Assembly: GCA_963700635.1 (NCBI GenBank)
Contig: CAVOYH010000004.1
Coordinates: forward strand, 96,001 to 160,000
Direction: 5' to 3'
DNA from: an uncultured Bacteroidota bacterium
GTDB taxonomy: Bacteria; Bacteroidota; Ignavibacteria; UBA10030; UBA6906
Length of the DNA stretch: 64,000 nucleotides
A program made the translations under genes and the position numbers. This document shows, one piece after another, positions 137-25,816 of this stretch; position 1 is the stretch's first letter; every line of letters starts with the position of its first letter. The notes under the pieces are model-generated. The model had not been told where the DNA came from and ran no database searches. It was given only the letters and a program-made list of their open reading frames with translations.

Positions 137-1420
137 ATGAAAAGAATCCCCGTCATCCTTGCGAGTCTTTTCTTCGTGGCAGTCAGCGTGCTGCACTTTC
201 GGCTGATTTCCGCGAGTCTCACTTCCCTTGCGTCATGGTGCGTGCTGGTGGTAAGCCATCCCGGCGCGTTCGCGAGCTATTGGGTCCCACCACTCCTGGA
301 GTACTGGCTGGCCGGTGTGGCGTGGATAGGGGTGGGCTTCGGGGGCTTCCTGCATGTGATCCGGATTGGTAAACAACGGGATCACTCCAGGTCTGAAGCG
401 GACTCACACAGGTCGGCACGGGGACAGTGGTCGCGGCGCGTTATCGGGCTCGTCATATTTGTCGCCCTGACGTCACCCTTTCTCACCCCTATCGGTCCAA
501 ATGTACAGGGAAATCTCGTTACAACCCGGCTACAACCGCCCCTGTCAATGGGTTACGTGCGGGAGTATCTTGAGGAGGATGACACAAGCTCTGGATCCAC
601 TGATCGTCTACATCTGGTATTCAAACGAGCAGCCAACTATCTGCTTAATCGGACAACGCTGGTGGGCGGAAGCGCGGACAGGCTCCCGTCGGATTCCGGG
701 AGTGGAGGTGTTGTCGTCCGTGAATATCCCACCACGTTCCTGTTCGGGACCGATGATAATGCGAGGGATGTCTTTAGCAGGGTGATCGCAGGTTCGCGAG
801 TGTCGCTTGCCGTGGGCATGAGCGCTGCGCTCGGCGCATTGCTCATCGGTCTAGCGGTGGGACTCCCGGCGGGCCTGTCCCGCGGCACTGCCGGCATTGT
901 CCTTATGCGGATCACGGATGTGTTCCTTGCAATTCCGAGCCTGTTTCTTGTCATGGGAGGACTTGCCTTTGTTGGTGAGTCCATCACAACGATTATTCTG
1001 GTCCTTGCGGCGACGGGATGGATGGGAATTGCAAGAGTCGTGCGGGGAGAAGTTCTCTCTCTGCGCGACAGAGAATTTGTTCTGGCTGCAAAGATGTTGC
1101 GCGTGTCGAATTGGACGGTCATGGTACGGCATCTCTTGCCCAATCTCCGGCCTGTGATACTCACCGCCGCCGTACTGCAGTTTGCCAATGCGGTGCTGGG
1201 GGAAGCGGCGCTTGGTTTTCTCGGACTCGGTGTTCAACCACCTACGCCGACGTGGGGGAATATGATGGGGGAGGCGACGGGATATCTCGGCCTGGCATGG
1301 TGGGTGGGCGTGTTCCCCGGGGTTGTCCTGGCAACAGTCATCGTCTCTGCCCATTCGCTTGGTGAACGCACAACCATCACGGCGGATGTCGAAAGAACGG
1401 TCAAACACTCCCCACCATGA
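137..1420 (+). CDS. Oligopeptide/dipeptide ABC transporter permease (OppC/DppC family) with extended N-terminus
   Basis: Motifs FLFGTDDNARDVFSRVIAGSRVSL, EFVLAAK (EAA loop), HLLPN, EAALGFLGLGVQPPTPTWG. Confidence 0.9.
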   Translation: MKRIPVILASLFFVAVSVLHFRLISASLTSLASWCVLVVSHPGAFASYWVPPLLEYWLAGVAWIGVGFGGFLHVIRIGKQRDHSRSEADSHRSARGQWSRRVIGLVIFVALTSPFLTPIGPNVQGNLVTTRLQPPLSMGYVREYLEEDDTSSGSTDRLHLVFKRAANYLLNRTTLVGGSADRLPSDSGSGGVVVREYPTTFLFGTDDNARDVFSRVIAGSRVSLAVGMSAALGALLIGLAVGLPAGLSRGTAGIVLMRITDVFLAIPSLFLVMGGLAFVGESITTIILVLAATGWMGIARVVRGEVLSLRDREFVLAAKMLRVSNWTVMVRHLLPNLRPVILTAAVLQFANAVLGEAALGFLGLGVQPPTPTWGNMMGEATGYLGLAWWVGVFPGVVLATVIVSAHSLGERTTITADVERTVKHSPP

Positions 1421-4400
1421 TGATCAATCACCGATATCACATCGTGAACCCTCTGGGAGAGGGGGGGAATGCTCAGGTATTTCTGGTGGAAGATACGCTG
1501 GAGCGGGGCCAGCGATCCGCCATGAAAGTCTTCCACCGGCAGAGTCTGGATGCTCGTGCCGAGCTCGAGCACATCTGGAATGAAATCGCGATCCTCGCTA
1601 CGCTGCATCATCCCAATCTGGTGCACGTGTTTGATTTTGGGGTGGTACGGAGTTCTGAAGAAAAATCGCTGCTGGATCGTCGCTTTCTTACCATGGAATA
1701 TATTCAAGGCGTCAGCGCCGATGCATGGTGCCGTACCGTACCGTCCGGGCAGGACCGGGCCACACATCTCAAGCATGTTCTTCTACAGGTCCTGCAGGTG
1801 CTGGCGTATGTTCACAGGCGGGGGATTATTCACTTCGACATCAAGCCGGACAACCTCCTGGTGATCTCGGGCGGCGAATCGGGGAGCGGTCTCCCGCTTG
1901 TGAAACTGACGGACTTTGGTTTTAGCGTCCACATGGGAACGGCGCATGAACTGTCGCTGCGGGGTACTCTCGAATACACCGCCCCCGAATTGCTCCGGCG
2001 GGACCCATTTGATCATCGGGTCGATCTTTATTCGCTCGGTGTCACGCTGTATGAGCTGATGGAAGGTCGCTGTCCGTTTGAAGAGGGTAATCCTGTCGAA
2101 CTCATAAAGAAGGTCCTTACCACCAAACCTGAATTCCAGCAGTCCCTCGATCCGGCATATTCTCTCCTGCTCCCTCTTCTTAAAGGACTTCTTCACGAGG
2201 ATCCTTCCCATCGATTTGAATCCGCAGGCCAAGCCGCTCGCTTTCTTCTCCCGGAAGGAGGCGGTTTGTACACAGCGGGATTTGACATCATCTCAAAGCC
2301 GGTTTTTGTCGGACGTGAAACCGAAAAGAGCCGGATCGGCCGTGCTCTTTCAGCCCTGGGCACAGAGCATGCTGGAGAACCTGAGACCGCCATCCTCATG
2401 ACGGGACCGGAAGGAATCGGAAAAACCGCTCTTGTGTCGGAAGTGGTCCGCCAGGCGCGGACAGCAGATGTTCCGGTCGTGGAGGTGAAGCACGCTCAAC
2501 GCCATGTTCCATTCAGTGCGGCGCGTTCCCTGTTGTCGATTCTCAAAGCAGAGGTTCTCTCTCGTTCTGCACGCGGCCCAGAACTGACTGAACGATTCGC
2601 CGATGTGATTGATCCCCGTGCAGAACATGGTGACGGGGAGACGGGGGAGTTTCAAACCGGCTGGCTACTCGAACGGGAAAAGACGATTGAGTCGCAGGCG
2701 CGCTTCATCAATCAGGCCTCGCTGCTCTTTCCGGTTGTGATTGTTGTTGATGATGTGGATGTGCTGGACGGTGAATCCATGGAAGTGCTTCGAACGGTAC
2801 ACCGGGACGGCACTCCGGGGCGGCTCCTGCTTCTTTTGACGGCGCCAAGAGTAAGCGATCTCCCGTTCGCTGCAAGCGAAATCCCTCTGGGGGAACTCGA
2901 CGCCGAGACTGTTGTCGCCATGAGCACTTCGACGATATCTCCTCCCACTGTCGGGGAGGCGATAGGGCTCCGCTTGCACCTGCTGTACGGAGGAACACCC
3001 TCGATTCTCGTTGAAGCGCTCTACTCGGCTGGAAAGCTGTTGTACGGCGAATCCCTGGATGAAATTGCAGACAGGTCGGGCCTTGCAGAGAAGGTGACCC
3101 TCAAGCTTCCACGCGACCTTGACCAGTTTCTGCTCAAGCGTTACCAATCGCTCGATCGGGGACTCCAGTTGACTCTGGATGTTCTGTCATGCTTCAGTGG
3201 ATCAGCACGGCTTGAAGTGGTCGAGGCAGTCCTGCCTTTCCAGCGCCAACGGACCCAGGCATACCTCTCGTTGCTCGAAGCCCACGGGCTTATAACATCC
3301 CACGATGCTGGCAAACGGTTTGCCGTGCGTCACACAAAACTGAAAGCCCTGATCAACTCTGCCCTGCAAGATGCCAGGCCTGCCACCCATTTGTTCATTG
3401 CATCCACATTGGAGGGCATCGCCGGAGCCCGTTCGTTTGATGATCTGCAGGAACTTGCCTACCAGTACACGCAAGCCGGACAGAGTGTTGAGGCACTGCT
3501 CTGGCTTGAAGCCGCCGGGGATGAAGGAACACAGCTCTCGGCCCACCAACAGGCGGGGCAACTTTACCGGCGGGCGATGGACCTGAGTCGCCCTGCGGAT
3601 GGCGTGAGCGTTGAGCGGCTCACTGTGAAACTTGCGGAGTCGCTGTTCCGCGGTGGTGCATTTCGTGATGCGATTGAGCTTGCGACACACGTTCTCGGCA
3701 CGGAACTTCTTGATGCCACTCACACAACGGTCCTCCACAAAATTGCCGGTCTCGCACAGTCACGGTTGGGTGAGTACCGGGAGGGGAAAAAGCACATTGA
3801 GACTGCCCTTGAGACGTGCGGTGACGCTCGGGAGAACGTTGAGCTTACGCAGGAACTGGTGGGCATTGACATCGCCCTGGGCAGTTTTCTCGAAGCAGAA
3901 CAGGCCAGTATTGTTCAGCTGGATCGGGCAAAAAGCCTCGGCAATCAGCTGAGTCTGGCTGCCATCTATACGGACCTGGGAATAGCAACGTTTTTCCAGG
4001 AATTGTATGACCGTTCGATTGAGTATTTCCGTGAGTCGATGGAAATCTATATAAGCGCAAAACACCACATGCATGCCGTTGATGCACAAATGAATATCGG
4101 CAACGTGATGAGCGCAAAGGGGAGGATTGCTGACGCAATTGAATGCTGGAGTGAGGCTCTCAGACAAAGCCAGGAATACGGTACGTTGAATCAACAGGCG
4201 CAGATCCTTAACAATATCGGCATTGCGCACTTTAAACTGAAACGATTCCGGGAGGCCAGGAGTTTCTATAACAACGCAAAAACGTTGTTTCATCGTCTGG
4301 ACTCAAAACAGGGGAGCGCGTACATTCTCACGAATCTTGGTGAGGTAGGATTCGCCGAGGGGCAGTATGAGCCGGCCCTTCTGATGTGGAAAGATGCTCT

Positions 4401-5124
4401 GCAACACTATTATGAAATGCACGATAGTCTGGGGATAGTTGAGACGCTGCTCCAGCTCGCTCAGGTTCATCTTGTCCTGGGTGATGGTGTATCCGCAAGC
4501 GCGATTCTTGGAGAAGCAGAGGCTCTGGTGAAGAGCAAGAATCTAGAGAGCTTTCGGGCTCACATGCTCTTCGTGCGTGGGATGTCTCTGATGCTTCTGG
4601 GGAACCATGATGCAGCCCGGAGTGCGTTCATGGACGCAGAGGAGCGTATGCAGGAGAGCGGGGACATCGCGCAGAGGTTATTGCTCGCGGTGCGCATGGC
4701 CGAATGTGACCATCATAGGGGCGAAGTCGATTCAGCGGTGGCCCTGGCCCGTCATGCGCTCGAGTTAGGGGAAACGCACACTCAACCCAACATCATCGCT
4801 GAGGCGTGCTTGCTCCTGGGAACGATTGCGAAGGCCTCTCCATCACGCGTTCAGGAAAAGGCGCTCCTGTTGTTCCGCACGGGGTTTGAGGCAATTGCGG
4901 AAGAACCGGTAACTGAGGTGACGTGGAAACTTGCGATGGCCCTTGGAGGTGAATTTCATGCACGCGGACAAAGAGAGAAAGCGAAGGGATTCCTGTCACA
5001 AGCGAAACTGGTGCTGCAGTTTTTTCTTTCACATTTTGCATCTTCTGAGCTCAGGAATCAATATCTTGCAGCAGGAAGCAAGGATGCGGTGATGAAAAAT
5101 CTTGATTCATTTTTGACTACGTAG
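1417..5124 (+). CDS. Ser/Thr protein kinase fused to STAND-like P-loop ATPase and TPR repeats
   Basis: Kinase motifs LGEGGNAQV, AMKVF, HFDIKPDN, DFG, YTAPE, DLYSLG; FVGRE, Walker A GPEGIGKT, Walker B VIVVDDVD; C-terminal TPR-like helices (NIGNV, NNIGIAH, TNLGEV). ATGA overlap with oppC. Confidence 0.9.
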   Translation: MMINHRYHIVNPLGEGGNAQVFLVEDTLERGQRSAMKVFHRQSLDARAELEHIWNEIAILATLHHPNLVHVFDFGVVRSSEEKSLLDRRFLTMEYIQGVSADAWCRTVPSGQDRATHLKHVLLQVLQVLAYVHRRGIIHFDIKPDNLLVISGGESGSGLPLVKLTDFGFSVHMGTAHELSLRGTLEYTAPELLRRDPFDHRVDLYSLGVTLYELMEGRCPFEEGNPVELIKKVLTTKPEFQQSLDPAYSLLLPLLKGLLHEDPSHRFESAGQAARFLLPEGGGLYTAGFDIISKPVFVGRETEKSRIGRALSALGTEHAGEPETAILMTGPEGIGKTALVSEVVRQARTADVPVVEVKHAQRHVPFSAARSLLSILKAEVLSRSARGPELTERFADVIDPRAEHGDGETGEFQTGWLLEREKTIESQARFINQASLLFPVVIVVDDVDVLDGESMEVLRTVHRDGTPGRLLLLLTAPRVSDLPFAASEIPLGELDAETVVAMSTSTISPPTVGEAIGLRLHLLYGGTPSILVEALYSAGKLLYGESLDEIADRSGLAEKVTLKLPRDLDQFLLKRYQSLDRGLQLTLDVLSCFSGSARLEVVEAVLPFQRQRTQAYLSLLEAHGLITSHDAGKRFAVRHTKLKALINSALQDARPATHLFIASTLEGIAGARSFDDLQELAYQYTQAGQSVEALLWLEAAGDEGTQLSAHQQAGQLYRRAMDLSRPADGVSVERLTVKLAESLFRGGAFRDAIELATHVLGTELLDATHTTVLHKIAGLAQSRLGEYREGKKHIETALETCGDARENVELTQELVGIDIALGSFLEAEQASIVQLDRAKSLGNQLSLAAIYTDLGIATFFQELYDRSIEYFRESMEIYISAKHHMHAVDAQMNIGNVMSAKGRIADAIECWSEALRQSQEYGTLNQQAQILNNIGIAHFKLKRFREARSFYNNAKTLFHRLDSKQGSAYILTNLGEVGFAEGQYEPALLMWKDALQHYYEMHDSLGIVETLLQLAQVHLVLGDGVSASAILGEAEALVKSKNLESFRAHMLFVRGMSLMLLGNHDAARSAFMDAEERMQESGDIAQRLLLAVRMAECDHHRGEVDSAVALARHALELGETHTQPNIIAEACLLLGTIAKASPSRVQEKALLLFRTGFEAIAEEPVTEVTWKLAMALGGEFHARGQREKAKGFLSQAKLVLQFFLSHFASSELRNQYLAAGSKDAVMKNLDSFLTT

Positions 5125-5138
5125 GGGATTCGGCCACC

Positions 5139-6572
5139 GTGGCTTCACGAAAAGATCGATTCGTCATTCTGCTCTCGGGTAGAAAAGAAATCATGGAACG
5201 CGTGCGGCGGTATGTCCGTTTGACCGACGCGATGCATCTTCAGTTTGTGTCCTCGCCAAGCTATCTGTCCGGAAGGGCCATTTTCAAAACGCCGGATCTT
5301 GTGCTGCTTGACGTCACAAAAGATACGGTCATTCTCCGGTCGGCAATCAGTGAGTTTGCGTCCCAGTTCCCGGATGTACCCATTCTGGCCATGACGCGGG
5401 CGGCCGACCACTCCTTCGCGGTGGAACTTGTGAAGCTGGGTGTGTCTGCATATTTTGTCGTCCCGGATGAGCAGCGAAAAATCATGGAACAGATCACATT
5501 ATTCCACAATGAATGGATCGCCAGGAGGGCAAAAAAGAAATTTGTGGATCTGCAGAAGGAGACATACGACTTCAGACATATTATCGGGACCTCACCGCTC
5601 CTGAAAGTCACCATGGAACGGGCTCAAAAAGTCATCATAAACAGCACCATGACGGTCCTGATCACCGGCGAAACCGGAACGGGAAAGGAACTTTTTGCCC
5701 GGGCGATTCACTACAACGGGAAAAACAAGAACAGCCCGTTCGTTGATATAGCCTGTACGGCACTTCCGGAGACCCTCCTCGAGTCTGAGCTGTTTGGCTA
5801 TGAGAAAGGCGCGTTTACCGACGCGAAGGAGAGGAAAATCGGTCTATTCGAACTGGCCGGTGACGGATCTATCTTTCTTGATGAAATCGGCGATATTTCC
5901 ATTGCGACACAATCAAAACTCCTGAAGGTGATCGAAGACCGCTCGATGAGAAGAGTCGGTGGCGTTCGGGATGTCCCGGTGCGGGCACGTATTATTGCGG
6001 CAACGAGCGCTGACCTTGATGCGAAGATGCGGGCGGGGGAGTTTCGAAAAGACCTGTACCACCGGCTCAAAATACTTCCTCTTGAATTGCCGCCGTTGAG
6101 GGACAGGAAGGATGACATACCGCTGCTTGTGAAGGAATTCCTTCGGACGTTCAACCAGGCGTACAAAAAGGAGATTAAGGGGCTGACTCCCCTCGCATTG
6201 CAGGCCCTTATGGAACATGAATGGGAGGGGAATGTCCGGGAACTCAAACATTGTATGGAACGCGCCGTCCTTCTGGAAGAACGGAGCTGGATTACGGAGC
6301 AGGATTTTGACTTCGCAATCGCGAAAGCACGCCCCACGAAGCGCACACTGATTGCCAACAGTCCCGAAAGCCTGCCTCCGAAAGAAGTCGATACGCTCAT
6401 GCTCCTGATCCCCCTTGACCACGCTTCATTACAGGAAGTGCAGAGAACGTGTGTCCTGAAGGTGCTGGACCATGTGGGGGGAAACAAGATGAAGGCGTCA
6501 AAAATTCTCAAAATTTCAAGGCCACGCCTCGACCGTATCCTCAAGGACGCCGACGACGACCCTGAAGAATGA
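5139..6572 (+). CDS. Sigma54-dependent enhancer-binding regulator (atypical REC-AAA+-Fis HTH)
   Basis: GETGTGKE, ESELFGYEKGAFTDA, IFLDEIGD, FRKDLYHRL, GNVREL; C-terminal HTH GNKMKASKILKISR; N-terminal receiver-like DLVLLDVT. Confidence 0.92.
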   Translation: MASRKDRFVILLSGRKEIMERVRRYVRLTDAMHLQFVSSPSYLSGRAIFKTPDLVLLDVTKDTVILRSAISEFASQFPDVPILAMTRAADHSFAVELVKLGVSAYFVVPDEQRKIMEQITLFHNEWIARRAKKKFVDLQKETYDFRHIIGTSPLLKVTMERAQKVIINSTMTVLITGETGTGKELFARAIHYNGKNKNSPFVDIACTALPETLLESELFGYEKGAFTDAKERKIGLFELAGDGSIFLDEIGDISIATQSKLLKVIEDRSMRRVGGVRDVPVRARIIAATSADLDAKMRAGEFRKDLYHRLKILPLELPPLRDRKDDIPLLVKEFLRTFNQAYKKEIKGLTPLALQALMEHEWEGNVRELKHCMERAVLLEERSWITEQDFDFAIAKARPTKRTLIANSPESLPPKEVDTLMLLIPLDHASLQEVQRTCVLKVLDHVGGNKMKASKILKISRPRLDRILKDADDDPEE

Positions 6573-6608
6573 TGTAACGTCCTGGATGAGCGAGTGTAAC
6601 GTTTTAGA
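6573..6608 (+). promoter_or_regulatory. Putative tandem upstream activator sites (UAS) for the sigma54 activator
   Basis: TGTAACGTCCTGGA (6573-6586) and TGTAACGTTTTAGA (6595-6608), 22 bp apart, about 120-155 bp upstream of a -24/-12 element. Confidence 0.5.
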
Positions 6609-6727
6609 GCATCACTTGACCTGCGTCACCTCATTCCCTGCCTCCCCCGAAACCACGAATTTTCATCCCGATCGCCGATCTGGCCCGGCATGCTCCATTT
6701 TGTACAATTCTCCACGATGACCTTTTG

Positions 6728-6743
6728 TGGCACAAAGGTTGAT
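6728..6743 (+). promoter_or_regulatory. Putative sigma54 (-24/-12) promoter
   Basis: TGGCAC-AAAGG-TTGAT versus consensus TGGCAC-N5-TTGCW; correct spacing, GA instead of GC at -12; just downstream of a sigma54 activator gene. Confidence 0.6.
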
Positions 6744-6920
6744 CTCTTTACCAGCAGACGCAATCGTGAGACCATACGAAAGTCACTCTTGAGCGGAAAT
6801 CGGTATTCAGTCAAAGCGGAGGGCACAATGCAAGAAGAGGACCAACACATTATCATCAACAGATTCACGCGCTTCATCCAGGCTCTACACATCGATAGAA
6901 GTATCAGAAGGAGTAAAATC

Positions 6921-7520
6921 ATGAACTTTTCAACTGTGAAAGCGGGCTTGCTTATCGGCGCTCTGTTCGTCACCCTGTTGACGGGGTGCCGGAATGATGG
7001 TCCGGTGGGCGTGGAAAACGCCCCATCAGCCACCCAGGAGCCTGACTTCCTGAAGATGCCCAAAAACCTGTCACTCCAGAAAGTCCTTGAATCGTCGGCA
7101 CTGATAACTCCTGAGGATGGCGGACAACTCAAGCTGGAATTTAAGTATGACTACACCACCAGCACGGGAGAAGTAAAAGAGTTGGACGTCAAGATGAAGT
7201 TGAAGTTTCCCAAAGGCGCCGTCCAACATCCGCTTGTTGCCAGGTTACGCATTGACGATGAGGTCCTGAGATCGAATGTGGACATTACGTTCAACCCGCA
7301 CGGTTCCACCTTCCTCACGCCGGCCATTCTTGACGTGGACGTGAGCGGGATGGATGTGAACGGGATGAGTCCCGATTCTCAGGTGTGGCTGTATTATGAT
7401 GAGGATGGTACGTGGGTGAAGATGGTCGCCAAAAAGGTTGAATTCAAATTCAAAGGTGGCAAGATCAAGTGCGATCATGGCGAGCTGCCGCACTTTTCAC
7501 GGTATGCGTTCGGCCGGTAG
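6921..7520 (+). CDS. Lipoprotein with ZU5-like domain and C-terminal HFS motif
   Basis: AAGGAG SD before ATG 6921; signal peptide with lipobox LLTG-C23; ZU5-like segments GGQL, LKFPKGAV, FNPHGSTFLTPAIL; ends ELPHFSRYAFGR*. Confidence 0.75.
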   Translation: MNFSTVKAGLLIGALFVTLLTGCRNDGPVGVENAPSATQEPDFLKMPKNLSLQKVLESSALITPEDGGQLKLEFKYDYTTSTGEVKELDVKMKLKFPKGAVQHPLVARLRIDDEVLRSNVDITFNPHGSTFLTPAILDVDVSGMDVNGMSPDSQVWLYYDEDGTWVKMVAKKVEFKFKGGKIKCDHGELPHFSRYAFGR

Positions 7521-7570
7521 GACCAACACATCAACCAATCACGGTGATTCGGTCTCACAACAGCGAAACA

Positions 7571-8818
7571 ATGAAAACAGAAACCGTCACAAAACAGATC
7601 CTCGGCATAGTCAGCGCTTATTGCGAGCCGAATGTGGTGACGGGTCTCGTAAAAGACCTGCGACGATCGGACGCGCTTGAGCATAGAATGTTGGCGGGAA
7701 AGAGCGGCGGCCACATACGTCGGAAGGACCGGGACCTCGTACTGGAGGAGCAGGGAAAACTGGATCGTTTGATTACGCTCTGTCAAGAACGGCTAAGAAT
7801 GGAGGACGTGTGTCAGGTGTTGCTGGGCATCGGGGACGTCTTCAAGGTTCACGGCGAGACACACCGGGCTGAGGAGCTGTACTCGATGGTTGTTGCGCAG
7901 GACGATCCACATCGGAAGAATGGGGTTGTCGCGGAAGCGTACCTGCGCCGTGGAGAAATATACTCCCGCAGAGCCCAGTGGAAACAATCCGCCTCCGACC
8001 TTGCCCGCAGCCGCGCGATTGTCTCAGAGTTGAACGATTTTGAGGCCCTTGGCCGGGTTGACAACATTCTTGGCACGAACCATGCGGAACAGGGGAAGAT
8101 CAATAAGGCCATAGAATTCTTCGAACGTGCCTTCAAGCAGTTCGAACACACCCGGCAGACACAGATGGCTGGCGTTGCGCTGATGAATCTCGGCATTACG
8201 TACAACATGATCGGTGAATACGACTCCGCCGTGACCTACTATACGCGGGCAAAATCCTATTTTGAGAACGTCGGCGATGTGAATCGGCTTTCGGAGGTGC
8301 ATCACAACACGGGAATGACGCATCTTTCCAGACGGATGTTCAAGGACGCAATCGGGGAGTTTAATACGAGTTACATGCTGTCGGCGTCGCTGCAGAATCT
8401 GTCCCTCATGGGACTGGCAAATCTGGGGAAAGCCCATGCGTATTATCATCTTCGCGACTTCCCCATGGCAGTAAAGCTGGTAAGCCAGGCGGTCGACTAC
8501 GCTACGAAATCGGGCGATCGATTGAGTCTCGCAGACGCCTATAAGGTAAAAGGGATGATCCATCGGGAAATGCAGAGTTATGATTCCGCTGCATCATACC
8601 TCCGGACAAGCGTTCGGATAAATACCGAACTCCACAATCAGTTGAACCTGGCGGAGTCATATTTTGAGATCGGCGTGCTGGAAGTGAAACGTCAGAACAC
8701 CGACGAGGCGTTACAGGCGTTTCAGAAGGCCCGCGCCGCGTTTAAGAAACTTGGCGCCCACAAGGATGTGAAAAAGACCATGGACCAGATAGTGGCTCTC
8801 GGAGGGACCAACGGATGA
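7571..8818 (+). CDS. Tetratricopeptide repeat protein (cytoplasmic)
   Basis: Repeated TPR-like helices (NILGTNH, MNLGITY, HNTGMTH, KVKGMIH, FEIGVLE); no signal peptide; ATG 7571 preferred over ORF-track start 7469. Confidence 0.8.
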   Translation: MKTETVTKQILGIVSAYCEPNVVTGLVKDLRRSDALEHRMLAGKSGGHIRRKDRDLVLEEQGKLDRLITLCQERLRMEDVCQVLLGIGDVFKVHGETHRAEELYSMVVAQDDPHRKNGVVAEAYLRRGEIYSRRAQWKQSASDLARSRAIVSELNDFEALGRVDNILGTNHAEQGKINKAIEFFERAFKQFEHTRQTQMAGVALMNLGITYNMIGEYDSAVTYYTRAKSYFENVGDVNRLSEVHHNTGMTHLSRRMFKDAIGEFNTSYMLSASLQNLSLMGLANLGKAHAYYHLRDFPMAVKLVSQAVDYATKSGDRLSLADAYKVKGMIHREMQSYDSAASYLRTSVRINTELHNQLNLAESYFEIGVLEVKRQNTDEALQAFQKARAAFKKLGAHKDVKKTMDQIVALGGTNG

Positions 8819-10113
8819 ACCTTCAGGATCTGCTGGGGCAGGAATCGACGGGGCTGGGGGACATTGCGGAAGGAAGAACTTCACCATCGCGGATGCGGGA
8901 TCTTGAAATGATCCTGAATGTTGTCCGCAAGATCAACACTTCCCTTGTCCTTTCGGATGTTCTGGAGCTGGTTCTCGACGAGGCAATCCGGATCACACGT
9001 GCAGAGCGTGGTTTTCTAATGCTCGCCGGCAATGACCGGGTTTTACAGTTTGTTGTCGGCCGTAATGCCGCGGGCGAGTCTATCCAGGCTGAAAGCTTTC
9101 AGGTGAGTTCGAGTGTGCTGGAAGACGTCTTCGCGACGGGTGAGTCTCTGTGCATCGAGAATGCGTTACACGACGAACGTTTTGAGCGAAGACAGAGCAT
9201 CATGAGTCTCGAGCTGCAGACGATCATCTGCAGCCCACTCCGGACGCCGGAGGACACGATCGGCGTTATCTACGTTGACAGCAAGTACATACAGGCCGTC
9301 GACAAGGCGGACACGCTCCATCTGTTTGAGATTCTGGCCGGTCAGGCGGCCATTGCCATCAAAAACGCGCGCCTGTATGAAGATCTCAAATCGACGTATG
9401 AGGACCTCAAACACGCCAATGCGCAGGTGATCAAGTCCGAACGCATGGCAATGAAAGGACAGATCGCCGGCGAAGTGAGCCACGAGCTCAAGAATATGAT
9501 CGCGATAGTGCTCCTGCAACTTGAAGTTCTCCGCTTGAAGCTTGACAGTTCCACGGTGGACGAGATCAGGTCGATGGTCGAGAAGACGGCAGACGGGGCG
9601 CGCAAGATCCGGGGATTTTCGGAAAGCCTGTTGACCAGGAATCGTTCCACCGACGCGGTGCTTCCCGTGAATCCCAATGATTTGTCACGAGACTTTTTTG
9701 ACTTTATCAAGGTGCTTCCCAAATTCAAGCACAACCAGCTTTCCCTGGTCCTCGGCGAAAACGTCCCACGGGTGCGGATGGATTTGGACCAGATTCAGCA
9801 GGTGCTTTTGAATCTTGTGAATAATGCCGTCGAGGCTTTTGCAGATGCCGCGATTGTTATCCAAACCGAATTCGATGCCGATTCAAACGTTGTCAGAATG
9901 TCCGTGCAGGATGACGGACCCGGCATCGATGACGCCATCAGAGATAAGCTCCTCAAGGAGATGGTCACCACAAAGATTGACGGCCATGGCTACGGGCTGC
10001 CCATCTGCCGTCAAATTATTGAACATCACGGCGGCACTATCCGAATCGACTCCTCAACGAATCGCGGTGCGAAGTTTGTCATGACATTCCCGGTGGACAC
10101 AGCAACGGGATAA
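8815..10113 (+). CDS. GAF domain sensor histidine kinase (soluble)
   Basis: GAF (AERGFLML...IICSPL...GVIYVD...AAIAIKNARLY); H-box VSHELKN; N-box NLVNNA; DDGPGI; GHGYGLPIC. ATGA overlap with the TPR gene. Confidence 0.92.
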   Translation: MNLQDLLGQESTGLGDIAEGRTSPSRMRDLEMILNVVRKINTSLVLSDVLELVLDEAIRITRAERGFLMLAGNDRVLQFVVGRNAAGESIQAESFQVSSSVLEDVFATGESLCIENALHDERFERRQSIMSLELQTIICSPLRTPEDTIGVIYVDSKYIQAVDKADTLHLFEILAGQAAIAIKNARLYEDLKSTYEDLKHANAQVIKSERMAMKGQIAGEVSHELKNMIAIVLLQLEVLRLKLDSSTVDEIRSMVEKTADGARKIRGFSESLLTRNRSTDAVLPVNPNDLSRDFFDFIKVLPKFKHNQLSLVLGENVPRVRMDLDQIQQVLLNLVNNAVEAFADAAIVIQTEFDADSNVVRMSVQDDGPGIDDAIRDKLLKEMVTTKIDGHGYGLPICRQIIEHHGGTIRIDSSTNRGAKFVMTFPVDTATG

Positions 10114-10147
10114 CTATCCACGCACGGAAACGCGGCGAACAGGAAAA

Positions 10148-10981
10148 ATGACGACACCGATGAAGCAGACGCTACACGATCCGTTCTCTGATCAAAGCTC
10201 CGTCCAGATCGCGACACACACGGATATTGGAAACGTCCGGACCCTGAATGAAGACAGCATCGCCGTCGTGCCTTCCACCGATCCTGCACAGTCACGTATG
10301 GGGACAATGTTGATCGTGGCCGACGGTCTCGGTGGATACAATGCAGGAGACGTTGCGAGCAAGCTCGTCACGACGGCGTTGCCGGAACTGTATCGTTCTG
10401 GGACCGGCAAGGATTATGTATCCGACCTGATCAATGCCGTGCACGCGTGTAATGGGGTGGTGCGTAACGCCGCTGACATGTCAGAGCGTATGCGAGGAAT
10501 GGGAACAACGGTTGTGGCTGCGGTGCTTGTCGGACAGTACGTGATCTTTGCGCATGTGGGTGACAGCAGGGGATATTTGTTTCGGCGTGGAGAGCTGGTC
10601 CATCGAACCACGGACCATTCGTTACGAAACGTGGCTACGGGCCTGGTCGGAGGCGATGTGCCAGATCGTTTTTCGCATGTCCTCACCCGTGCGATCGGGC
10701 CGACGCCGGATCTTCTCGTTGACGTTACCGCCCATCGCCTCGAAAAAGACGACGTTGTCCTCTTGTGCTCCGACGGCTTGACAAATTGTGTGGGTGACGA
10801 CGTACTACGAACCATCGTGCTGGAGTATTCCCCTGCGGACGCGGCCCGGCTGCTGGTCAACATGGCGAATGATGAAGGCGGGGAGGACAACATCAGCGTG
10901 ATCGTCGCGCGAATCGAAAATCTCCCTGCACGCGACAGTGATGAAGCGTTGCTGGGAGTACAACCCTACCTCGTTCCCTAA
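10148..10981 (+). CDS. PP2C-family Ser/Thr protein phosphatase (PrpC/Stp type)
   Basis: RTLNED, VADGLGG, GMGTT, HVGDSRGY, LTRAIG, LLCSDGL, GGEDNISV. Confidence 0.93.
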   Translation: MTTPMKQTLHDPFSDQSSVQIATHTDIGNVRTLNEDSIAVVPSTDPAQSRMGTMLIVADGLGGYNAGDVASKLVTTALPELYRSGTGKDYVSDLINAVHACNGVVRNAADMSERMRGMGTTVVAAVLVGQYVIFAHVGDSRGYLFRRGELVHRTTDHSLRNVATGLVGGDVPDRFSHVLTRAIGPTPDLLVDVTAHRLEKDDVVLLCSDGLTNCVGDDVLRTIVLEYSPADAARLLVNMANDEGGEDNISVIVARIENLPARDSDEALLGVQPYLVP

Positions 10982-11360: not shown

Positions 11361-12901
11361 ATGTTCAGGATTCTCTCAACTATATTCGGCCTAAGCCTCT
11401 GCCTTTTGTTACTTACCGGGGGAGTAAACGCTCAACAAACTGAAGGACGGTGGGCGATCGGACTCTCCGGAGGTACGAATCTCTGGTTTAACGATCTTAA
11501 TCAAATGAAGCTCGGATTCGGAGGAGCGGCAACGGTCCGCTACGGATTCACTCCCGTATTCTCTCTGGGCCTCTTCGCCGGCATGGAGGAACTGAAGTCT
11601 TCTCAGTCCCCCCTCTCCCCGATCTGGCCTATTCCTATCTGAAAATCAACGCGTATCCTGTCGCGCTTTCGGCGTGGTTTCACCTTGCCCCGGGCAGCGG
11701 CTTCGCGCCCTACATCCGCATCGGCGGCGGTCTGATGGCATACCATCGAAAGACTGCCGGAAACCTGTACGCCCCGGACGACAAGATGCGTGCGACAATC
11801 ATCATTCCGCTGGGCATTGGCTTTGATATTTTTGCCTCAAAGAAGTTCGCGATAAATGTTGATTTTGGCGTCGCGACCATGTCCAACAAAATCGATCTCC
11901 GTGACAACTCTTCACCCGATGGATATGTCACAGGCCGGGTGGGATTTTCGTGGTATCCGGGATCGGGTGATGCGGATGACCGCGACGAGGATGGACTTAC
12001 CGACGGACAGGAACGCCGGCTGGGGACCGATCCGGAAAACCCCGACAGCGATGGTGATGGGTTGAACGACGGAGACGAACTCCGCCGCTACCGTACAAAT
12101 CCGCTGCGGTCCGACAGTGACGGCGACGGACTGACCGATGGGGATGAGGTGACGAAATACAAAACCGATCCCTCCCGGTACGACACCGACGGTGACGGCC
12201 TCTCCGACGGCGATGAACTGCAAAAGTACAACACCGATCCGACACGTGTCGACACTGACGGCGATGGCCTCACCGACGGTGACGAAATCCTCCGCCTGAA
12301 AACAGATCCGCTGAAGGTGGATACCGACGGTGACGGACTTTCGGACTGGGACGAAGTAAAATCCTATCGGACGGATCCAGCGAACCCGGATACCGACGGG
12401 GACGGTATTATTGATGGCGAAGAGGTTGCCAAGTACCGCACGAATCCGCTCAAAGCGGACTCCGATGGCGGGGGATTGATTGACGGTGCGGAAGTTATCC
12501 GGGGAACGAACCCCCTTGATCCCAAAGACGATGCAGTGAAAGAAACGATCGTCCTGGAACGAGGGAAAAACTTAATGCTCCAGGGGATCAATTTTAACAC
12601 CGGGAGCGCGACCCTGACGAGTGATTCCGAGGAGATGCTGGAAAGGGTGTTCGCCGGACTGGTGTCGAATCCGAAAGTCCGTGTGGAAATCGCAGGATAT
12701 ACGGACAATGTCGGCTCGCGGGTAGCGAATGAACAACTTTCCCAACGGAGGGCCGAGGCCGTTCGTGCGTGGCTGATCGCAAAGGGCATTGCCGCAAGCC
12801 GCCTGACTGCGCGCGGTTACGGTATCCGGAATCCTATCGACACAAACACCACGGCGGAAGGTCGTGCACGCAACCGCCGGATTGAGTTCCACGTGCAGTA
12901 A
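11361..12901 (+). CDS. OmpA-family outer membrane protein (beta-barrel, Ca-binding DxDGDG repeats, OmpA C-terminal domain); one-base frameshift near 11608-11620
   Basis: Signal peptide and barrel strands in 11361-11642 continue in another frame (YSYLKINAYPV...APYIRIGGGL) into ORF 11735-12901, which has AGYTDNVG, NEQLSQRRA, GRARNRRIEF. Confidence 0.85.
11978..12533 (+). repeat. Eight tandem ~23-aa thrombospondin-type-3-like Ca-binding repeats
   Basis: D(T/S)DGDGL(T/S)DGDE...(Y)xT(D/N)P repeated eight times with about 69-nt period. Confidence 0.85.
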
Positions 12902-18972: not shown

Positions 18973-19502
18973 TTCCATGGAGGGCCGTATCACGCACAGT
19001 CCGGTTTAAGAACCCGTGGTGGTCGTACGGTCTTGACACCGTGGTCCTGCCGAACGGCAAGGAAGGTGAATACCACTACGTCCATTCATTGGGATCGGCG
19101 TGTGTCATCCCTGTGCTGGATGAGGGGAGTATCCTCCTCGTAAACCAGTACCGCTATCTGGGAAATAAAGAAAGTCTGGAGTTCCCCTGCGGGGCTGTGA
19201 AGGATGGATCCTCACACGACCAAACTGCCTGGCATGAGCTTGCGGAGGAAACGGGGTACTCAGCTGTGACGTTGGTGCAGATTGGCGCATTCAATCCGTA
19301 CAATGGCGTGACAGACGAGATCTGTAACGTCTATGTGGCCCGTGAACTCCGGCACATCGGGGCGGCTCCCGATGAGACTGAACAATTTGAACTCGTCCGG
19401 TTGCCCGTGCAGGAAGTAGACAGAAGAATCCGCGAAGGACTCATCTGGGATGGCATGAGTATCGCCGCATGGCATCTGGCCCGCGCACGAGGTCTTCTCT
19501 AA
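18963..19502 (+). CDS. NUDIX hydrolase (ADP-ribose pyrophosphatase-like)
   Basis: QYRY...EFPCG...[10 protein letters not shown] Nudix box. Confidence 0.88.
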
Positions 19503-19516
19503 TCACCGGATCAAGC

Positions 19517-20764
19517 ATGGTCAATTCCCTGAGAGTCGTGGTCGAAAAGAGCATCCCCGCCGGAGTTATCTTAATCGTCATCGGCATACTGTCGGGTTGC
19601 GGTATCGCCTACGCGGGATCGGGTGTATCCACGGGTGCGGATCAGCTGGTCAGCTCACGGTGTTCGCTCCTCATCGGGAAGCGGGTAGGCGTGGTGACGA
19701 ACCACACCGGCCGTTTGTCCACCGGTGAATTTCTTGTCGATACGCTCATTGGTGCGGGAATCCAGGTCCGTGCGCTCTTCGGGCCGGAACACGGCATCCG
19801 CGGCGTGGATGGAGCGGGCGATGCGGTCGCTGACAGCGTCGATGCAAGGACGGGCATTCCCGTCTACTCGCTCTACGGAAGGACGAACAAGCCCACGGCA
19901 GAGATGTTGAAGGACATCAACGTCCTGGTGTACGATATTCAGGATGTCGGCGCCCGGTTCTATACCTACATCAGCACCATGAAACTGTGTATGGATGCGG
20001 CGCTGGAACACGGGATCCCGTTTGTCGTCCTGGACCGTCCCAATCCGCTCGGCGGGCTTGTTGATGGACCGATTGTGGAGGATTCGCTCAAATCATTTGT
20101 CGGGATCGTATCCATTCCGGTGGTGTATGGTTTGACGGCAGGAGAACTTGCCACCATGATCAACGAGCGTGGTTGGCTCGAGTCCGGCGGCAAAGTTGAT
20201 CTCACCGTTGTGTGGATGGAAGGATGGTCGAGGGCCCTCCGTAATACCACTCCATGGATTCCGCCATCACCAAATATCAGGCATCCGTCCACGGTTGATG
20301 TGTATCCGGCAACATGTTTTCTTGAGGCCACCAATGTGTCCGAAGGGCGGGGAACCCCCGATCCATTTTTTGTAATCGGAGCGCCCTGGATACGGAAAGA
20401 AGAACTGACATCGCGGCTGAATGCAGCCCGCCTGGCCGGCGTGACGTTTACACCGGCGGTGTTCACCCCTGCGTCCTCTAAGCACGCCGGCATTCTCTGC
20501 CAGGGGGTGTCACTCAGCGTCTCGGCGGCGGACTCCTTCAGACCGGTACTCACGGGAATGACAATACTCTCGGTGATCCGGGAACTGTATCCTGACAGCC
20601 TTGTTATCCGTTCACGTTCACTGGGCCGACTTCTGGGCGTGGCCGGCGTGGACGACCAGATATTGTCAGGCAAAGCCCCCGTGGATATCCAAAAAGCCTG
20701 GATTGACGAAACCCGCAGATACGAAGGATCACTCCAACCTTACAGGTACTACCCCCAGAAGTAA
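19517..20764 (+). CDS. Exo-beta-N-acetylmuramidase NamZ / DUF1343 family
   Basis: GVVTNHTG, LFGPEHGIRG, YDIQDVGARFYTY, LDRPNP, PPSPN, SEGRGT. Confidence 0.9.
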   Translation: MVNSLRVVVEKSIPAGVILIVIGILSGCGIAYAGSGVSTGADQLVSSRCSLLIGKRVGVVTNHTGRLSTGEFLVDTLIGAGIQVRALFGPEHGIRGVDGAGDAVADSVDARTGIPVYSLYGRTNKPTAEMLKDINVLVYDIQDVGARFYTYISTMKLCMDAALEHGIPFVVLDRPNPLGGLVDGPIVEDSLKSFVGIVSIPVVYGLTAGELATMINERGWLESGGKVDLTVVWMEGWSRALRNTTPWIPPSPNIRHPSTVDVYPATCFLEATNVSEGRGTPDPFFVIGAPWIRKEELTSRLNAARLAGVTFTPAVFTPASSKHAGILCQGVSLSVSAADSFRPVLTGMTILSVIRELYPDSLVIRSRSLGRLLGVAGVDDQILSGKAPVDIQKAWIDETRRYEGSLQPYRYYPQK

Positions 20765-20812
20765 GCAAACCCTTTAAGAGCGTCGTTTTGGACGATTCTC
20801 TTCCTGAATTAG

Positions 20813-20841
20813 TTGACTTTGCACGCGGATTTGATTAACTT
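20813..20841 (+). promoter_or_regulatory. Sigma70-type promoter
   Basis: TTGACT-N17-TAACTT upstream of the GAF-GGDEF gene. Confidence 0.55.
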
Positions 20842-20883
20842 TTTACGATCTTGTGTTATCATACCCCAACTAGAAGGTTTACA

Positions 20884-24275: not shown

Positions 24276-25133
24276 ATGGTAAAGATTACCAAGCAGTATA
24301 CAAATCGGGAGAGCCAGTCGCTCGACAAGTATCTGCAAGAGATCGGCAAGGTTGATTTATTAAAATCGGAGGAGGAGATTGATCTCGCCCGGCGTATTAA
24401 GAAGGGAGATCAACTGGCGCTCGAAAAACTCACCAAGGCGAATCTCCGCTTCGTGGTGAGTGTGGCCAAACAATATCAGAACCAGGGGCTCTCGCTGGGT
24501 GACTTGATTAATGAAGGCAACCTCGGTCTGATCAAGGCGGCGAAAAGATTCGACGAAACCCGCGGGTTCAAGTTTATCTCGTATGCGGTGTGGTGGATCC
24601 GTCAGTCGATTCTCCAGGCGCTCGCCGAGCAGTCGCGGATCGTGCGGCTTCCCCTTAATCGCGTCGGCGCGCTGAACAAGATCGGAAAGGCATTCAGCTC
24701 CCTGGAGCAGGAATTCGAGCGCGAGCCAAGTGCAAGTGAGCTGGCCGAAGAGCTTGATATGTCGTTGTTCGAAGTTTCCGACACGCTCAAGATCTCGGGT
24801 CGCCATCTTTCGATGGACGCACCGTTTGCCCAGGGTGAGGACAACAGACTCCTGGATGTGATCCAGGATGAGCGCCAGCCGGCCCCTGACAGCGAACTGA
24901 TGAAAGAATCCTTAAGCCGGGAAGTGGAGCGGGCATTGTCCACACTCAGCGCGCGGGAAGCAGAGGTCATCAGGTTGTATTTTGGTCTGGGCCGGGAACA
25001 TTCCCTGACACTTGAAGAAATTGGTGAGAAATTCAAACTCACCCGGGAACGGGTCCGGCAGATCAAGGAGAAAGCCATCAGGCGACTCCGCCATGCCTCC
25101 CGGAGCAAACAACTTCGTGCGTATCTTGGGTGA
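24276..25133 (+). CDS. rpoD: RNA polymerase primary sigma factor, short Bacteroidota type (no region 1.1)
   Basis: [61 protein letters not shown]. Confidence 0.9.
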
Positions 25134-25816
25134 CACGCGCGGCTTCTAAGTCCGGGACGGCCCTCACCGTGCGATACTGCGCCGTGATGGTTGTGCTGTG
25201 TGCCGTGGTTGCGGGCGCCGTGCTCTCCGGATGCACCGCCTCGTCACCTCGTTTTCGCACCGCCGGATCCGCCGATGATCACGATGATGAGAATGAACTT
25301 CGCTTCGCGACCCGGATCCGGGAGGAAGTACGGAGAGAAGACGATCGAACGGTCAGCATCGAAGAAGCGAAGACCCGTCTTAGCCGCCGGACTGTTCCCT
25401 CAGGGAAATACTCCAACAAAACGCCCGCGGGTATAGAACGGGACAGGGTGCTGCTGGACGTGGTGGGATATCTTGGCGTGCCGTATGTCTACGGAGGGAA
25501 CACCAGGGAGGGGATTGATTGTTCTGGTTTTACGGTCCAGGTGTACCAGAATGCCGTAGAGAAGAAGTTGCCGCGAACGGCCAGGGAACAATTTGGATCC
25601 GGTACGCCGGTGGATCTTTCACAATTGCAGTTCGGGGACCTGGTTTTCTTTAACACGACCGGCCGGGTTCCGTCTCACGTCGGGATTTACATCGAAGATG
25701 ACCTCTTTGCCCATGCGAGCGTAACACGCGGCGTGACGCTCTCATCGCTGGAGAGTACGTACTACAAAAGACGGTTTGTCGGCGCCCGGCGGGTTGTCCG
25801 ATCACATGTTGAATAA
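25130..25816 (+). CDS. NlpC/P60 (C40) peptidoglycan peptidase lipoprotein
   Basis: Lipobox LSGC; [33 protein letters not shown]. Confidence 0.9.

Follow-up and report, generated by a model that had tools for sequence, protein, structure and literature searches.

A probable ZU5-superfamily lipoprotein ending just past a His-Phe-Ser motif and its possible part in peptide signalling of Ignavibacteria-type bacteria

The lipoprotein gene

The 64,000-nucleotide stretch of DNA analysed here, in the following called the window, comes from an uncultured Bacteroidota bacterium of the Ignavibacteria (contig CAVOYH010000004.1, positions 96,001 to 160,000), whose assembly has an estimated contamination of 6.73%. 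It encodes at 6921-7520 a lipoprotein of 199 amino acids (aa), which is present in one copy in its genome and which ends shortly behind a His-Phe-Ser (HFS) motif. The gene and the parts of its product are as follows.

6906..6913 (+): Shine-Dalgarno-like sequence AGAAGGAG, 7 nt before ATG 6921 (sequence)
6921..7520 (+): gene of the probable ZU5-type lipoprotein, 199 codons, P0001 (open reading frame read from the sequence)
6921..6989 (+): signal peptide and lipobox L-T-G-C with Cys23 (sequence; conserved in family alignments)
7086..7517 (+): predicted ZU5-superfamily beta-sandwich domain, residues ~56-199 (AlphaFold2 (AF2) model, hhalign, family hidden Markov model (HMM))
7491..7499 (+): His191-Phe192-Ser193 with the predicted scissile bond Phe192/Ser193 (invariant columns; HFS alignment of bacterial ZU5 domains; model)
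7497..7517 (+): predicted heptapeptide SRYAFGR, last beta-strand of the domain (tail statistics, model)

A sequence-only reading of this DNA had described a 199-aa lipoprotein with a Cys23 lipobox, and the open reading frame, its coordinates and every segment quoted, including GGQL, LKFPKGAV and FNPHGSTFLTPAIL in the mature part, were found again in the sequence. The same is true for His191-Phe-Ser193 at 7491-7499, behind which only RYAFGR and the stop codon TAG (7518-7520) follow; the C-terminus reads ...ELPHFSRYAFGR (also written ...GELPHFSRYAFGR). The Cys23 codon TGC (6987-6989) lies inside LLTGC, which agrees with the pattern [LVI][ASTVI][GAS]C of bacterial lipoproteins.

P0002, the gene call made for this locus in the public data, has 276 aa, begins at ATG 6690 and contains 77 extra residues. 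We favour ATG 6921 as the true start of the predicted protein, because the alignment of the homologues, the Shine-Dalgarno sequence and the position of the lipobox all agree with it. The start at ATG 6690 masks the signal peptide and overlaps a candidate sigma-54 promoter at 6728-6743. A search for sequencing runs listed none of RNA, and one DNA run shares a small part of the sequence words.

Conservation of the HFS motif and of the C-terminal tail

A word-indexed search revealed nine close relatives with 33-67% identity, all of them without a name or annotated as 'hypothetical protein'. The nearest homologues share 60-67% identity across 89-98% of the length. HFSRYA and C23 are invariant in the alignment of these nine proteins (A1). 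An exhaustive phmmer search of 1.84 billion representatives (50% identity clusters) yielded 428 family proteins at E<=1e-3 and 179 at E<=1e-10. The size of the family together with the invariance of the HFS motif rules out a chance open reading frame or a chance tripeptide.

H191, F192 and S193 are the sole invariant columns of the 139-sequence family alignment (A2), in which C23 is conserved to at least 90%. The tails were counted in 159 stored relatives, 123 of which contain a lipobox-like Cys according to a regular expression. HFS is located near the C-terminus in 158 of the 159 proteins; the lone relative lacking it, P0013, is a 155-aa fragment that matches just query residues 2-122. Counted from the Ser to the end, 45 proteins have 7, 49 have 8 and 40 have 9 residues (134 of 158 with 7-9), while 10-11 residues are found in 17 and 13-24 in 7 proteins. 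The length is therefore at most 11 in 151/158 and at most 24 in all. Following the Ser (158/158), the tails comprise R (139/158), Y (154/158), A (127/158) or G (24/158), a hydrophobic residue, and then G, A or S.

The heptapeptide behind the motif, whose conservation in homologues had been named by the sequence-only reading as a point to look at, is thus retained as a short strand S-R-Y-[AG]-hydrophobic behind an invariant HFS. The statement that no passenger domain follows the motif holds across the whole family: none was found in the 158 relatives, and the query itself ends 6 residues past Ser193. Members of 314-653 aa contain extra N-terminal or inserted domains and carry the same ZU5-like module and tail at their end. 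A word-indexed search with A2 found no longer fused relatives, which is weak evidence for that type of search. One relative, P0036 (348 aa), consists of two ZU5-like repeats, of which the internal one shows NFT and the C-terminal one HFS followed by an 8-residue tail.

Relationship to ZU5 domains

The Pfam family matched most frequently by far among the 139 members is PF00791 (ZU5), which is found in 15 of them at E<=1 with a best value of 9e-5. In the ESM Atlas, ZU5 is found on 51% of the proteins of the closest cluster with a name (score 0.87), which is a lead only. Bacterial ZU5 domains were collected by a PF00791 scan of 201 genomes from the phylum of the window, and seven places in six genomes lie above the curated cut-off. 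HFS is located ~45-60 residues past the Pfam match in four of them; L003 has KFS instead, and L005 and L007 are without the triad.

The alignment of the four HFS-bearing bacterial ZU5 domains (A3), which is small and from a single phylum, matches A2 in hhalign with 98.5% probability and E 3e-15 over 117 columns. The segments GG-x-L, P-x-GA and GP-x-G-x-x-F-x-x-P are in register, and HFS is aligned with HFS. The A2 HMM also matches the Pfam-ZU5 regions of a 1328-aa frame (G108; E 3.6e-15) and a 1330-aa frame (G044; E 3.7e-10). A3 in turn matches the solved ZU5 domains of ZO-1 (4.6e-7) and ankyrin-1 (2.9e-6) as well as those of ankyrin-2 and ankyrin-3, and ZU5 was re-confirmed by hmmscan in three of the four A3 proteins at E<=2.2e-5. 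As these bacterial Pfam-ZU5 intermediates link the family profile to solved ZU5 structures, the lipoprotein family very probably belongs to the ZU5 superfamily.

Some of the collected bacterial ZU5 proteins show other layouts. The paralogues L004:1-1854 (-) and L009:1-1920 (-) of genome G131, open frames of 618 aa and 640 aa, comprise a lipoprotein-like leader (..FFSCEKD / ..LLSCDKE), ZU5, HFS and directly behind it a Peptidase_C39_2-like domain. This is the canonical layout in which ZU5 releases a passenger, and the phylum is that of the passenger-less family. FG-GAP repeats, ZU5 and a sorting domain of the type IX secretion system (Por_Secre_tail) are combined in L006:1-2169 (+) from G108 and in L003 from G044; HFS lies ~35 residues ahead of the sorting domain in the 1328-aa frame of G108, and its G044 orthologue has KFS there.

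Predicted structure

A first AF2 model, computed from 10 sequences, was mediocre with a predicted local distance difference test score (pLDDT) of 69.7, and Foldseek was uninformative for it. The model from 139 sequences reaches a pLDDT of 85.7 and is all-beta with 11 strands. HFS is placed in the turn between the strands 181-191 and 194-198, and the last block of the model has a pLDDT of 94. An H/S-F-S triad in the turn that precedes the last strand, as it characterizes autoproteolytic domains of the ZU5/Nup98 type, is thus found in the model. The model suggests that release of the tail, which is built in as a beta-strand, would be conditional, as the sequence-only reading had argued from the example of GAIN. 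In Nup98 and in FIIND the cleaved parts remain bound to each other.

The HFS/SFS of Nup98, PIDD and CARD8 is described at a position matching the turn of our model (PMC3210808). The same source gives HFS-dependent autocleavage as experimentally established for PIDD, Nup98 and CARD8/NLRP1, and a fission-yeast isoform of Nup98 is reported in which cleavage at HFS removes a mere 33-aa tail (PMC4483485). As far as these two sources describe them, all experimentally studied proteins with the triad in this position are cut between Phe and Ser by an N-to-O acyl shift (PMC3210808, PMC4483485).

Gene neighbourhood

The genes from 137 to 10981 around the lipoprotein gene are co-directional (+). They encode an importer subunit, proteins with tetratricopeptide repeats (TPR), kinases, a phosphatase and a transcriptional activator; further importer genes, from a region termed L111, are located just upstream of the window.

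L111:7559-9237 (-): two ATPases, divergent (ABC_tran; one with oligo_HPY)
L111:9211-11100: SBP_bac_5 binding protein (SBP_bac_5 8.2e-69)
L111:11360-12130: OppB-like permease (BPD_transp_1)
137..1420 (+): OppC-like ABC permease, last importer gene (Pfam BPD_transp_1 5.2e-27); its stop overlaps the next ATG, 1417-1420
1417..5124 (+): Ser/Thr kinase - AAA_16 (STAND-like; signal transduction ATPase with numerous domains) - TPR protein, 1235 aa (Pkinase 4.9e-45, AAA_16 4e-16, TPR_12 6.3e-28)
5139..6572 (+): sigma-54-dependent enhancer-binding protein (Sigma54_activat 2.5e-62; HTH_8 3e-4, a helix-turn-helix (HTH) of the Fis type)
6728..6743 (+): candidate sigma-54 -24/-12 promoter TGGCACAAAGGTTGAT, 193 nt upstream of ATG 6921
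7571..8818 (+): TPR-only protein (TPR415), 415 aa (Pfam TPR families only)
8815..10113 (+): GAF - histidine kinase (GAF_2 1.9e-13, HATPase_c 1.3e-23); its start overlaps the TPR415 stop
10148..10981 (+): PP2C-type protein phosphatase (Pfam PP2C 4.6e-14)

The TPR proteins that had been noticed as neighbours could be confirmed by Pfam: the kinase-AAA_16-TPR gene (1417-5124) and the TPR-only gene (7571-8818) flank the lipoprotein gene. The gap between the lipoprotein gene and TPR415 is 50 nt, and no terminator-like site lies between them. The N-terminus of the sigma-54 activator is weakly receiver-like (Response_reg 4.3e-4, under the curated cut-off).

Farther downstream, a 93-aa open reading frame with a signal peptide and beta-barrel-like sequence (11361-11642, +) is followed, after a gap of 92 nt and in another frame, by one of 388 aa that combines eight TSP3 repeats of the bacterial type with an OmpA domain (11735-12901, +). 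This pair resembles a single gene of the OmpA family that a frameshift or an error of the assembly has divided. The downstream genes at 19469-22794 and 24276-25816 (+) encode, among others, an exo-N-acetylmuramidase of the NamZ type, a diguanylate cyclase with GAF and GGDEF, a factor of the sigma-70 family and a peptidase of the NlpC/P60 type.

TPR partners and conservation of the cassettes

The gene context was compared at 68 loci with named relatives (12.5 kb or less) and at 9 further loci of 20 kb. The relatives in the 68 loci originate from metagenome-assembled genomes (MAGs) of Ignavibacteriales, Ignavibacteriaceae, Melioribacteraceae, Calditrichota and KSB1, and some MAGs are labelled 'Bacteroidetes' and one Eisenbacteria. 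Fifty-four loci were evaluable (8 are without enough flank, and in 6 the family gene was not re-found by tblastn), and in 42 of these the family gene is followed, on its own strand and no more than 2.5 kb downstream, by the gene of a TPR415 homologue. The adjacency was also found in 5 of the 9 longer loci. Homologues of the kinase-AAA_16-TPR protein are encoded near family genes in 14/68 loci and in several of the 20-kb loci, and those of the GAF-histidine kinase in 21/68. The downstream partners in Calditrichota and KSB1 are AAA_16-TPR (~810 aa) and Pkinase-AAA_16-TPR proteins (~1110 aa).

According to an HMM scan, the arrays consist of one to seven tandem lipoprotein genes with one or two TPR genes behind them, and at L059, L077, L090 and L099 the ZU5-TPR cassette is repeated. 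The largest array, on the chromosome of a Calditrichales MAG (L050:1-6552, +), contains seven tandem family genes with frames of 184-412 aa, along which tails of two kinds, ..SRYAMAYGW and ..SRYAIGTEY, alternate; genes for AAA_16-TPR and kinase-AAA_16-TPR proteins follow.

In a tree of 46 TPR proteins the grouping into clades agrees with the tail class of the lipoprotein encoded upstream, with 10 label changes in comparison to a shuffled mean of 22.3. All three NWAK-associated TPR proteins form one clade with a support of 100/99. This agreement shows inheritance as cassettes, not binding. Asn residues conserved in each TPR repeat were considered as a peptide-binding 'Asn ladder', which was dropped, as this Asn belongs to the consensus that TPR_12-type repeats have in general.

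Neither a hydrophobic segment nor a signal peptide or transmembrane segment could be identified in 13 homologues of TPR415. Because of this the TPR partners are predicted to be cytoplasmic, and a periplasmic peptide would therefore need import. That is a step beyond the sequence-only reading, which had proposed the heptapeptide as a possible signal for the neighbouring TPR proteins. The conserved gene order, with the TPR gene behind the lipoprotein gene, and the Opp-type importer in the cluster lend this proposal some support that had not been expected, though of an indirect kind.

The oligopeptide importer

A full gene set of the oligopeptide or dipeptide permease type (Opp/Dpp) adjoins the lipoprotein cluster, and its SBP_bac_5 gene is the only one in the genome. 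The product of this sole OppA-type gene is unusually long (629 aa, with ~140 residues ahead of the Pfam domain). Opp homologues are encoded in 6 of the 9 loci of 20 kb and in 21 of the 68 shorter ones, where the usual order is ZU5(n), TPR, OppA. In the 201-genome sample of the phylum the lipoprotein family is present in 18, TPR415 (E<=1e-40) in 12 and SBP_bac_5 in 128 genomes. For the order of the window (23 genomes) the family was found in 4 and SBP_bac_5 in 5 genomes, including all 4. Of the 13 genomes of the genome family f7, 8 contain the lipoprotein family; 7 of these 8, and none of the others, have SBP_bac_5.

Possible sigma-54 regulation

The genome encodes rpoN, and the sigma-54 activator gene (5139-6572) adjoins the lipoprotein gene. 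Promoters were searched with the consensus TGGCAC-N5-TTGCW, and at least 9 of the 11 specified positions within 300 nt upstream were regarded as a match. With gene starts assigned heuristically, 32 of 67 first-in-array genes of the family have such a match upstream, as opposed to 5 of 43 internal genes, at an expected background of 0.026 per region. Across the window, 6 sigma-54-like matches stand against 5.57 expected by chance, which is no excess. The argument for the promoter rests on its position and on the family-wide count.

Proposed mechanism

The following mechanism is proposed. The lipoprotein would be exported and lipid-anchored, with a mature part that consists of one ZU5-superfamily beta-sandwich and ends just past a catalytic-type His-Phe-Ser turn. 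Ser193 would attack the carbonyl of Phe192 in an N-to-O acyl shift, as in PIDD1, UNC5CL, Nup98 and the FIIND of NLRP1/CARD8. Hydrolysis of the ester would leave a body ending ...PHF-COOH and the heptapeptide SRYAFGR, which would at first be docked as the last beta-strand. It may then be freed, for example by unfolding or turnover of the lipoprotein, and imported by the neighbouring Opp-type ABC transporter. The downstream-encoded cytoplasmic TPR protein, and perhaps also the upstream kinase-AAA_16-TPR protein, would read the peptide and feed the GAF-histidine kinase, the PP2C phosphatase and the sigma-54 activator, which would act on the promoter ahead of the lipoprotein gene. The logic of this loop would resemble that of the Phr peptides and of the RNPP systems (named after Rap, NprR, PlcR and PrgX), in Gram-negative Ignavibacteria-type bacteria and with a self-cleaving domain in place of an external protease.

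The single steps are not equally plausible. Autocleavage at HF/S is, judged from the sequences, rather likely to occur. A use of the C-terminal peptide as a re-imported cue is a tentative assumption, which we regard as somewhat doubtful. The whole chain from HF/S autoproteolysis and the heptapeptide to Opp re-import and reading by TPR/STAND proteins is, by analogy with known systems, well conceivable and falls a little short of being probable.

Several of the results weigh against this interpretation. In direct comparisons the relationship to ZU5 is not visible. A Pfam scan of the lipoprotein gave no family at E<=10, including ZU5, Nup98 and GPS, and an NCBIfam scan gave none either. The Pfam ZU5 model missed the lipoprotein in its own genome and produced a single 12.8-bit chance match elsewhere. 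Searches of the PDB sequences with the lipoprotein (phmmer) and with A2 (hmmsearch) gave chance or signal-peptide matches and no solved ZU5. Foldseek found nothing significant in the PDB for either of the two models, with no ZU5, Nup98 or GAIN among the 50 matches listed. The relationship to ZU5 proposed by the sequence-only reading is supported at the profile level, by hhalign, the HMM and the bridge through A3, but not by direct Pfam and Foldseek comparison, of which the latter may have been too insensitive.

Further points concern the signalling steps. The tail is modelled as a confident integral beta-strand, so that release of the peptide is not automatic, and with S-R-Y near-invariant just 3-5 variable positions are left for specificity. 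No output domain was recognised in TPR415 by Pfam, which reports TPR families only. Compared with the PDB, the TPR profile matches generic TPR proteins; Rap phosphatases (RapF 2.9e-16) are found among many and are outranked by designed TPRs, LGN/Pins and kinesin light chains. The ZU5 genes often outnumber the TPR genes, up to 7 to 2, and the pairing is not 1:1. At the candidate promoter, which lies at -193, the -12 element is TTGA and not TTGC (GA for consensus GC). Opp systems are also nutritional and common in the phylum without the family (SBP_bac_5 in 128/201 vs the family in 18/201). Finally, related genomes are not independent samples, and the counts of co-occurrence given above overstate independence.

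Alternative explanations

The main alternative is that of a sigma-54-induced envelope lipoprotein with a ZU5 module for binding or structural purposes, in which the heptapeptide stays docked, nicked or not, and does not take part in signalling. Opp, the kinases and the TPR proteins would then belong to a peptide-nutrition or stress regulon with the lipoproteins as its output genes. This agrees with the confident integral strand at the tail, with S-R-Y-A being conserved like a structural element, with the many lipoprotein genes per TPR gene in the arrays, and with sigma-54 promoters that mark the lipoproteins as regulated outputs. Opp-type importers are moreover widespread nutritional systems (128/201 genomes), and the non-cleaving eukaryotic ZU5 domains (ankyrin, ZO-1, UNC5B), to which the solved structures matched belong, are binding modules. 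However, it is hard to explain without chemistry that H, F and S alone are invariant in the mature domain of 139 sequences, and the same-strand coupling to a cytoplasmic TPR gene as well as the duplication of ZU5-TPR cassettes suggest a specific relationship. In the order of the window, Opp-type genes are found almost exclusively in family-carrying genomes. Weighing both sides, we consider a purely docked strand possible, though on the unlikely side.

It is also conceivable that autoproteolysis does not take place at all, and that HFS is kept for the buried Phe and the turn in folding of a protein that ends at its domain boundary. Many eukaryotic ZU5 domains do not cleave, and to our knowledge no bacterial ZU5 domain was experimentally shown to do so. 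In Nup98 the exchange of His for Ala or Gln is described to affect cleavage only slightly, and the Phe is regarded there as an anchor of the structure (PMC3210808); cleavage by bacterial ZU5 domains is presented as a prediction by Zhang et al. 2012 (PMC3482391). Non-cleaving ZU5 domains, however, are typically without the triad, for instance UNC5b with a Leu where the Phe of CARD8 is essential (PMC3210808), and the fold does not require HFS, as L005 and L007 lack it and L003 has KFS. Ser193 is invariant in 158/158 relatives. An uncleaved protein therefore appears improbable to us. Even less is to be said for a transfer reaction, in which the Phe192 ester would be taken by another nucleophile, in a Hedgehog-like manner, and attached to an envelope component with the heptapeptide as leaving group. 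It is chemical logic alone that speaks for it, acyl-shift intermediates being capturable by other nucleophiles; Hedgehog is grouped with Nup98 and PIDD among the acyl-shift proteins (PMC3210808), and a leaving group without a passenger domain would fit. Such a transfer is without precedent in the ZU5 superfamily and leaves the linkage to TPR and Opp genes unexplained, no candidate for an acceptor-related gene was seen among the Pfam-annotated neighbours in the cluster, and we consider it highly improbable.

For the preferred interpretation, self-cleavage followed by signalling with the released peptide, we argue that the chemistry may well be in use, because H, F and S are invariant although the ZU5 fold tolerates their loss (L003, L005, L007). 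The peptide is favoured as the putative functional output, because it is the sole other product and because the gene is coupled to a cytoplasmic TPR protein and an importer.

Comparison with known systems

Autoproteolysis of ZU5, Nup98 and GAIN domains is mainly known from the biology of animal cell death, inflammasomes, nuclear pores and adhesion receptors. PIDD1, UNC5CL and the FIIND of NLRP1-CARD8 are related to the present family by profile homology via bacterial ZU5 domains, and the triad is likewise located at the C-terminal edge of the domain before the last strand. Their cleavage parts, however, are large units (UPA-CARD, death domain), whereas only 6 residues follow the Ser here. The present family is furthermore prokaryotic, exported and lipid-anchored, and the lipoprotein of the window is missed by the Pfam model.

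The cytoplasmic or nuclear Nup98 differs from the lipoprotein, which gave no Pfam match to the Nup98 family (Nucleoporin2 / peptidase S59), and we know of no signalling function of the Nup98 tail. Nup98 has the same HFS tripeptide and the acyl-shift chemistry that is predicted here, and from one fission-yeast isoform of it just a 33-aa tail is removed (PMC4483485).

According to Zhang et al. 2012, Nup98, GPS and ZU5 form one superfamily, and the bacterial ZU5 domains are predicted releasing autopeptidases, found in large surface proteins and, in the case of RHS-type toxins, at the N-terminus (PMC3482391). These are direct bacterial relatives of the present family, with L004, L009 and L006 as examples in the same phylum. 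While they precede a passenger, the proteins described here are passenger-less, ~200 aa in size, arranged in tandem and linked to sigma-54, TPR and Opp. The GAIN/GPS domains of adhesion GPCRs, with their tethered agonist strand, are similar in concept, as a cleaved terminal beta-strand is buried until a trigger exposes it as ligand. No match to them was obtained with Pfam or Foldseek, and the GAIN strand stays attached to the receptor, whereas a free heptapeptide is predicted here.

The RNPP systems of Firmicutes (Rap-Phr, NprR-NprX, PlcR-PapR) are described with an exported precursor, a C-terminal peptide and import by Opp (PMC3601965, PMC2441798, PMC10569065). The likeness extends to the cytoplasmic TPR gene beside the precursor gene, the duplicated cassettes and, in the case of PapR, a C-terminal heptapeptide, as given in these sources. 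By gene adjacency alone, a predicted cytoplasmic TPR protein and an oligopeptide permease are present next to the lipoprotein in the same way. The precursor, however, is a folded lipoprotein of 177 residues with a putative self-cleaving domain instead of a propeptide of ~40 aa that is cut externally, and the hosts are Gram-negative bacteria of the Fibrobacteres-Chlorobi-Bacteroidetes (FCB) group. A receptor of the Rap/NprR/PlcR/PrgX type with HTH or phosphatase output was not found, since Pfam recognises TPR only in the partner protein, and its similarity to the RNPP receptors is that of generic TPR proteins. The same logic of peptide signalling is followed by the phage system AimR-AimP.

Literature searches gave, among the top matches, no description of ~200-aa lipoproteins ending at HFS or of a ZU5-TPR-Opp-sigma-54 cluster, although supplements such as Additional File 1 of PMC3482391 may list stand-alone forms.

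Significance

The conservative reading already annotates a widespread family of 'hypothetical proteins' and defines a conserved sigma-54 regulon in lineages that have been little studied and are for the most part uncultured. Autoproteolysis of bacterial ZU5 domains was so far only predicted, and for toxin release. If the proposed mechanism is true, the novelty would extend to the mechanism itself. The system would reveal the purpose of a minimal self-cleaving ZU5 domain, provide a first function for the passenger-less form, and offer a simple bacterial model for the release of a tethered strand. Although we rate it as unlikely at present, the Ignavibacteria-type bacteria, Calditrichota and KSB1 may thus possess an undescribed kind of peptide signalling, consisting of a self-cut strand of 7-9 residues from a folded outer-envelope lipoprotein, import by a dedicated Opp, TPR/STAND receptors and sigma-54. 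The strand would stay docked in the manner of a tethered agonist until its lipoprotein unfolds or is degraded. Such a circuit would sense damage to the envelope or the density of the cells, and would switch on the genes of its own precursors. Signalling by re-imported peptides would then extend beyond Firmicutes and phages, with a Gram-negative counterpart of RNPP quorum sensing.

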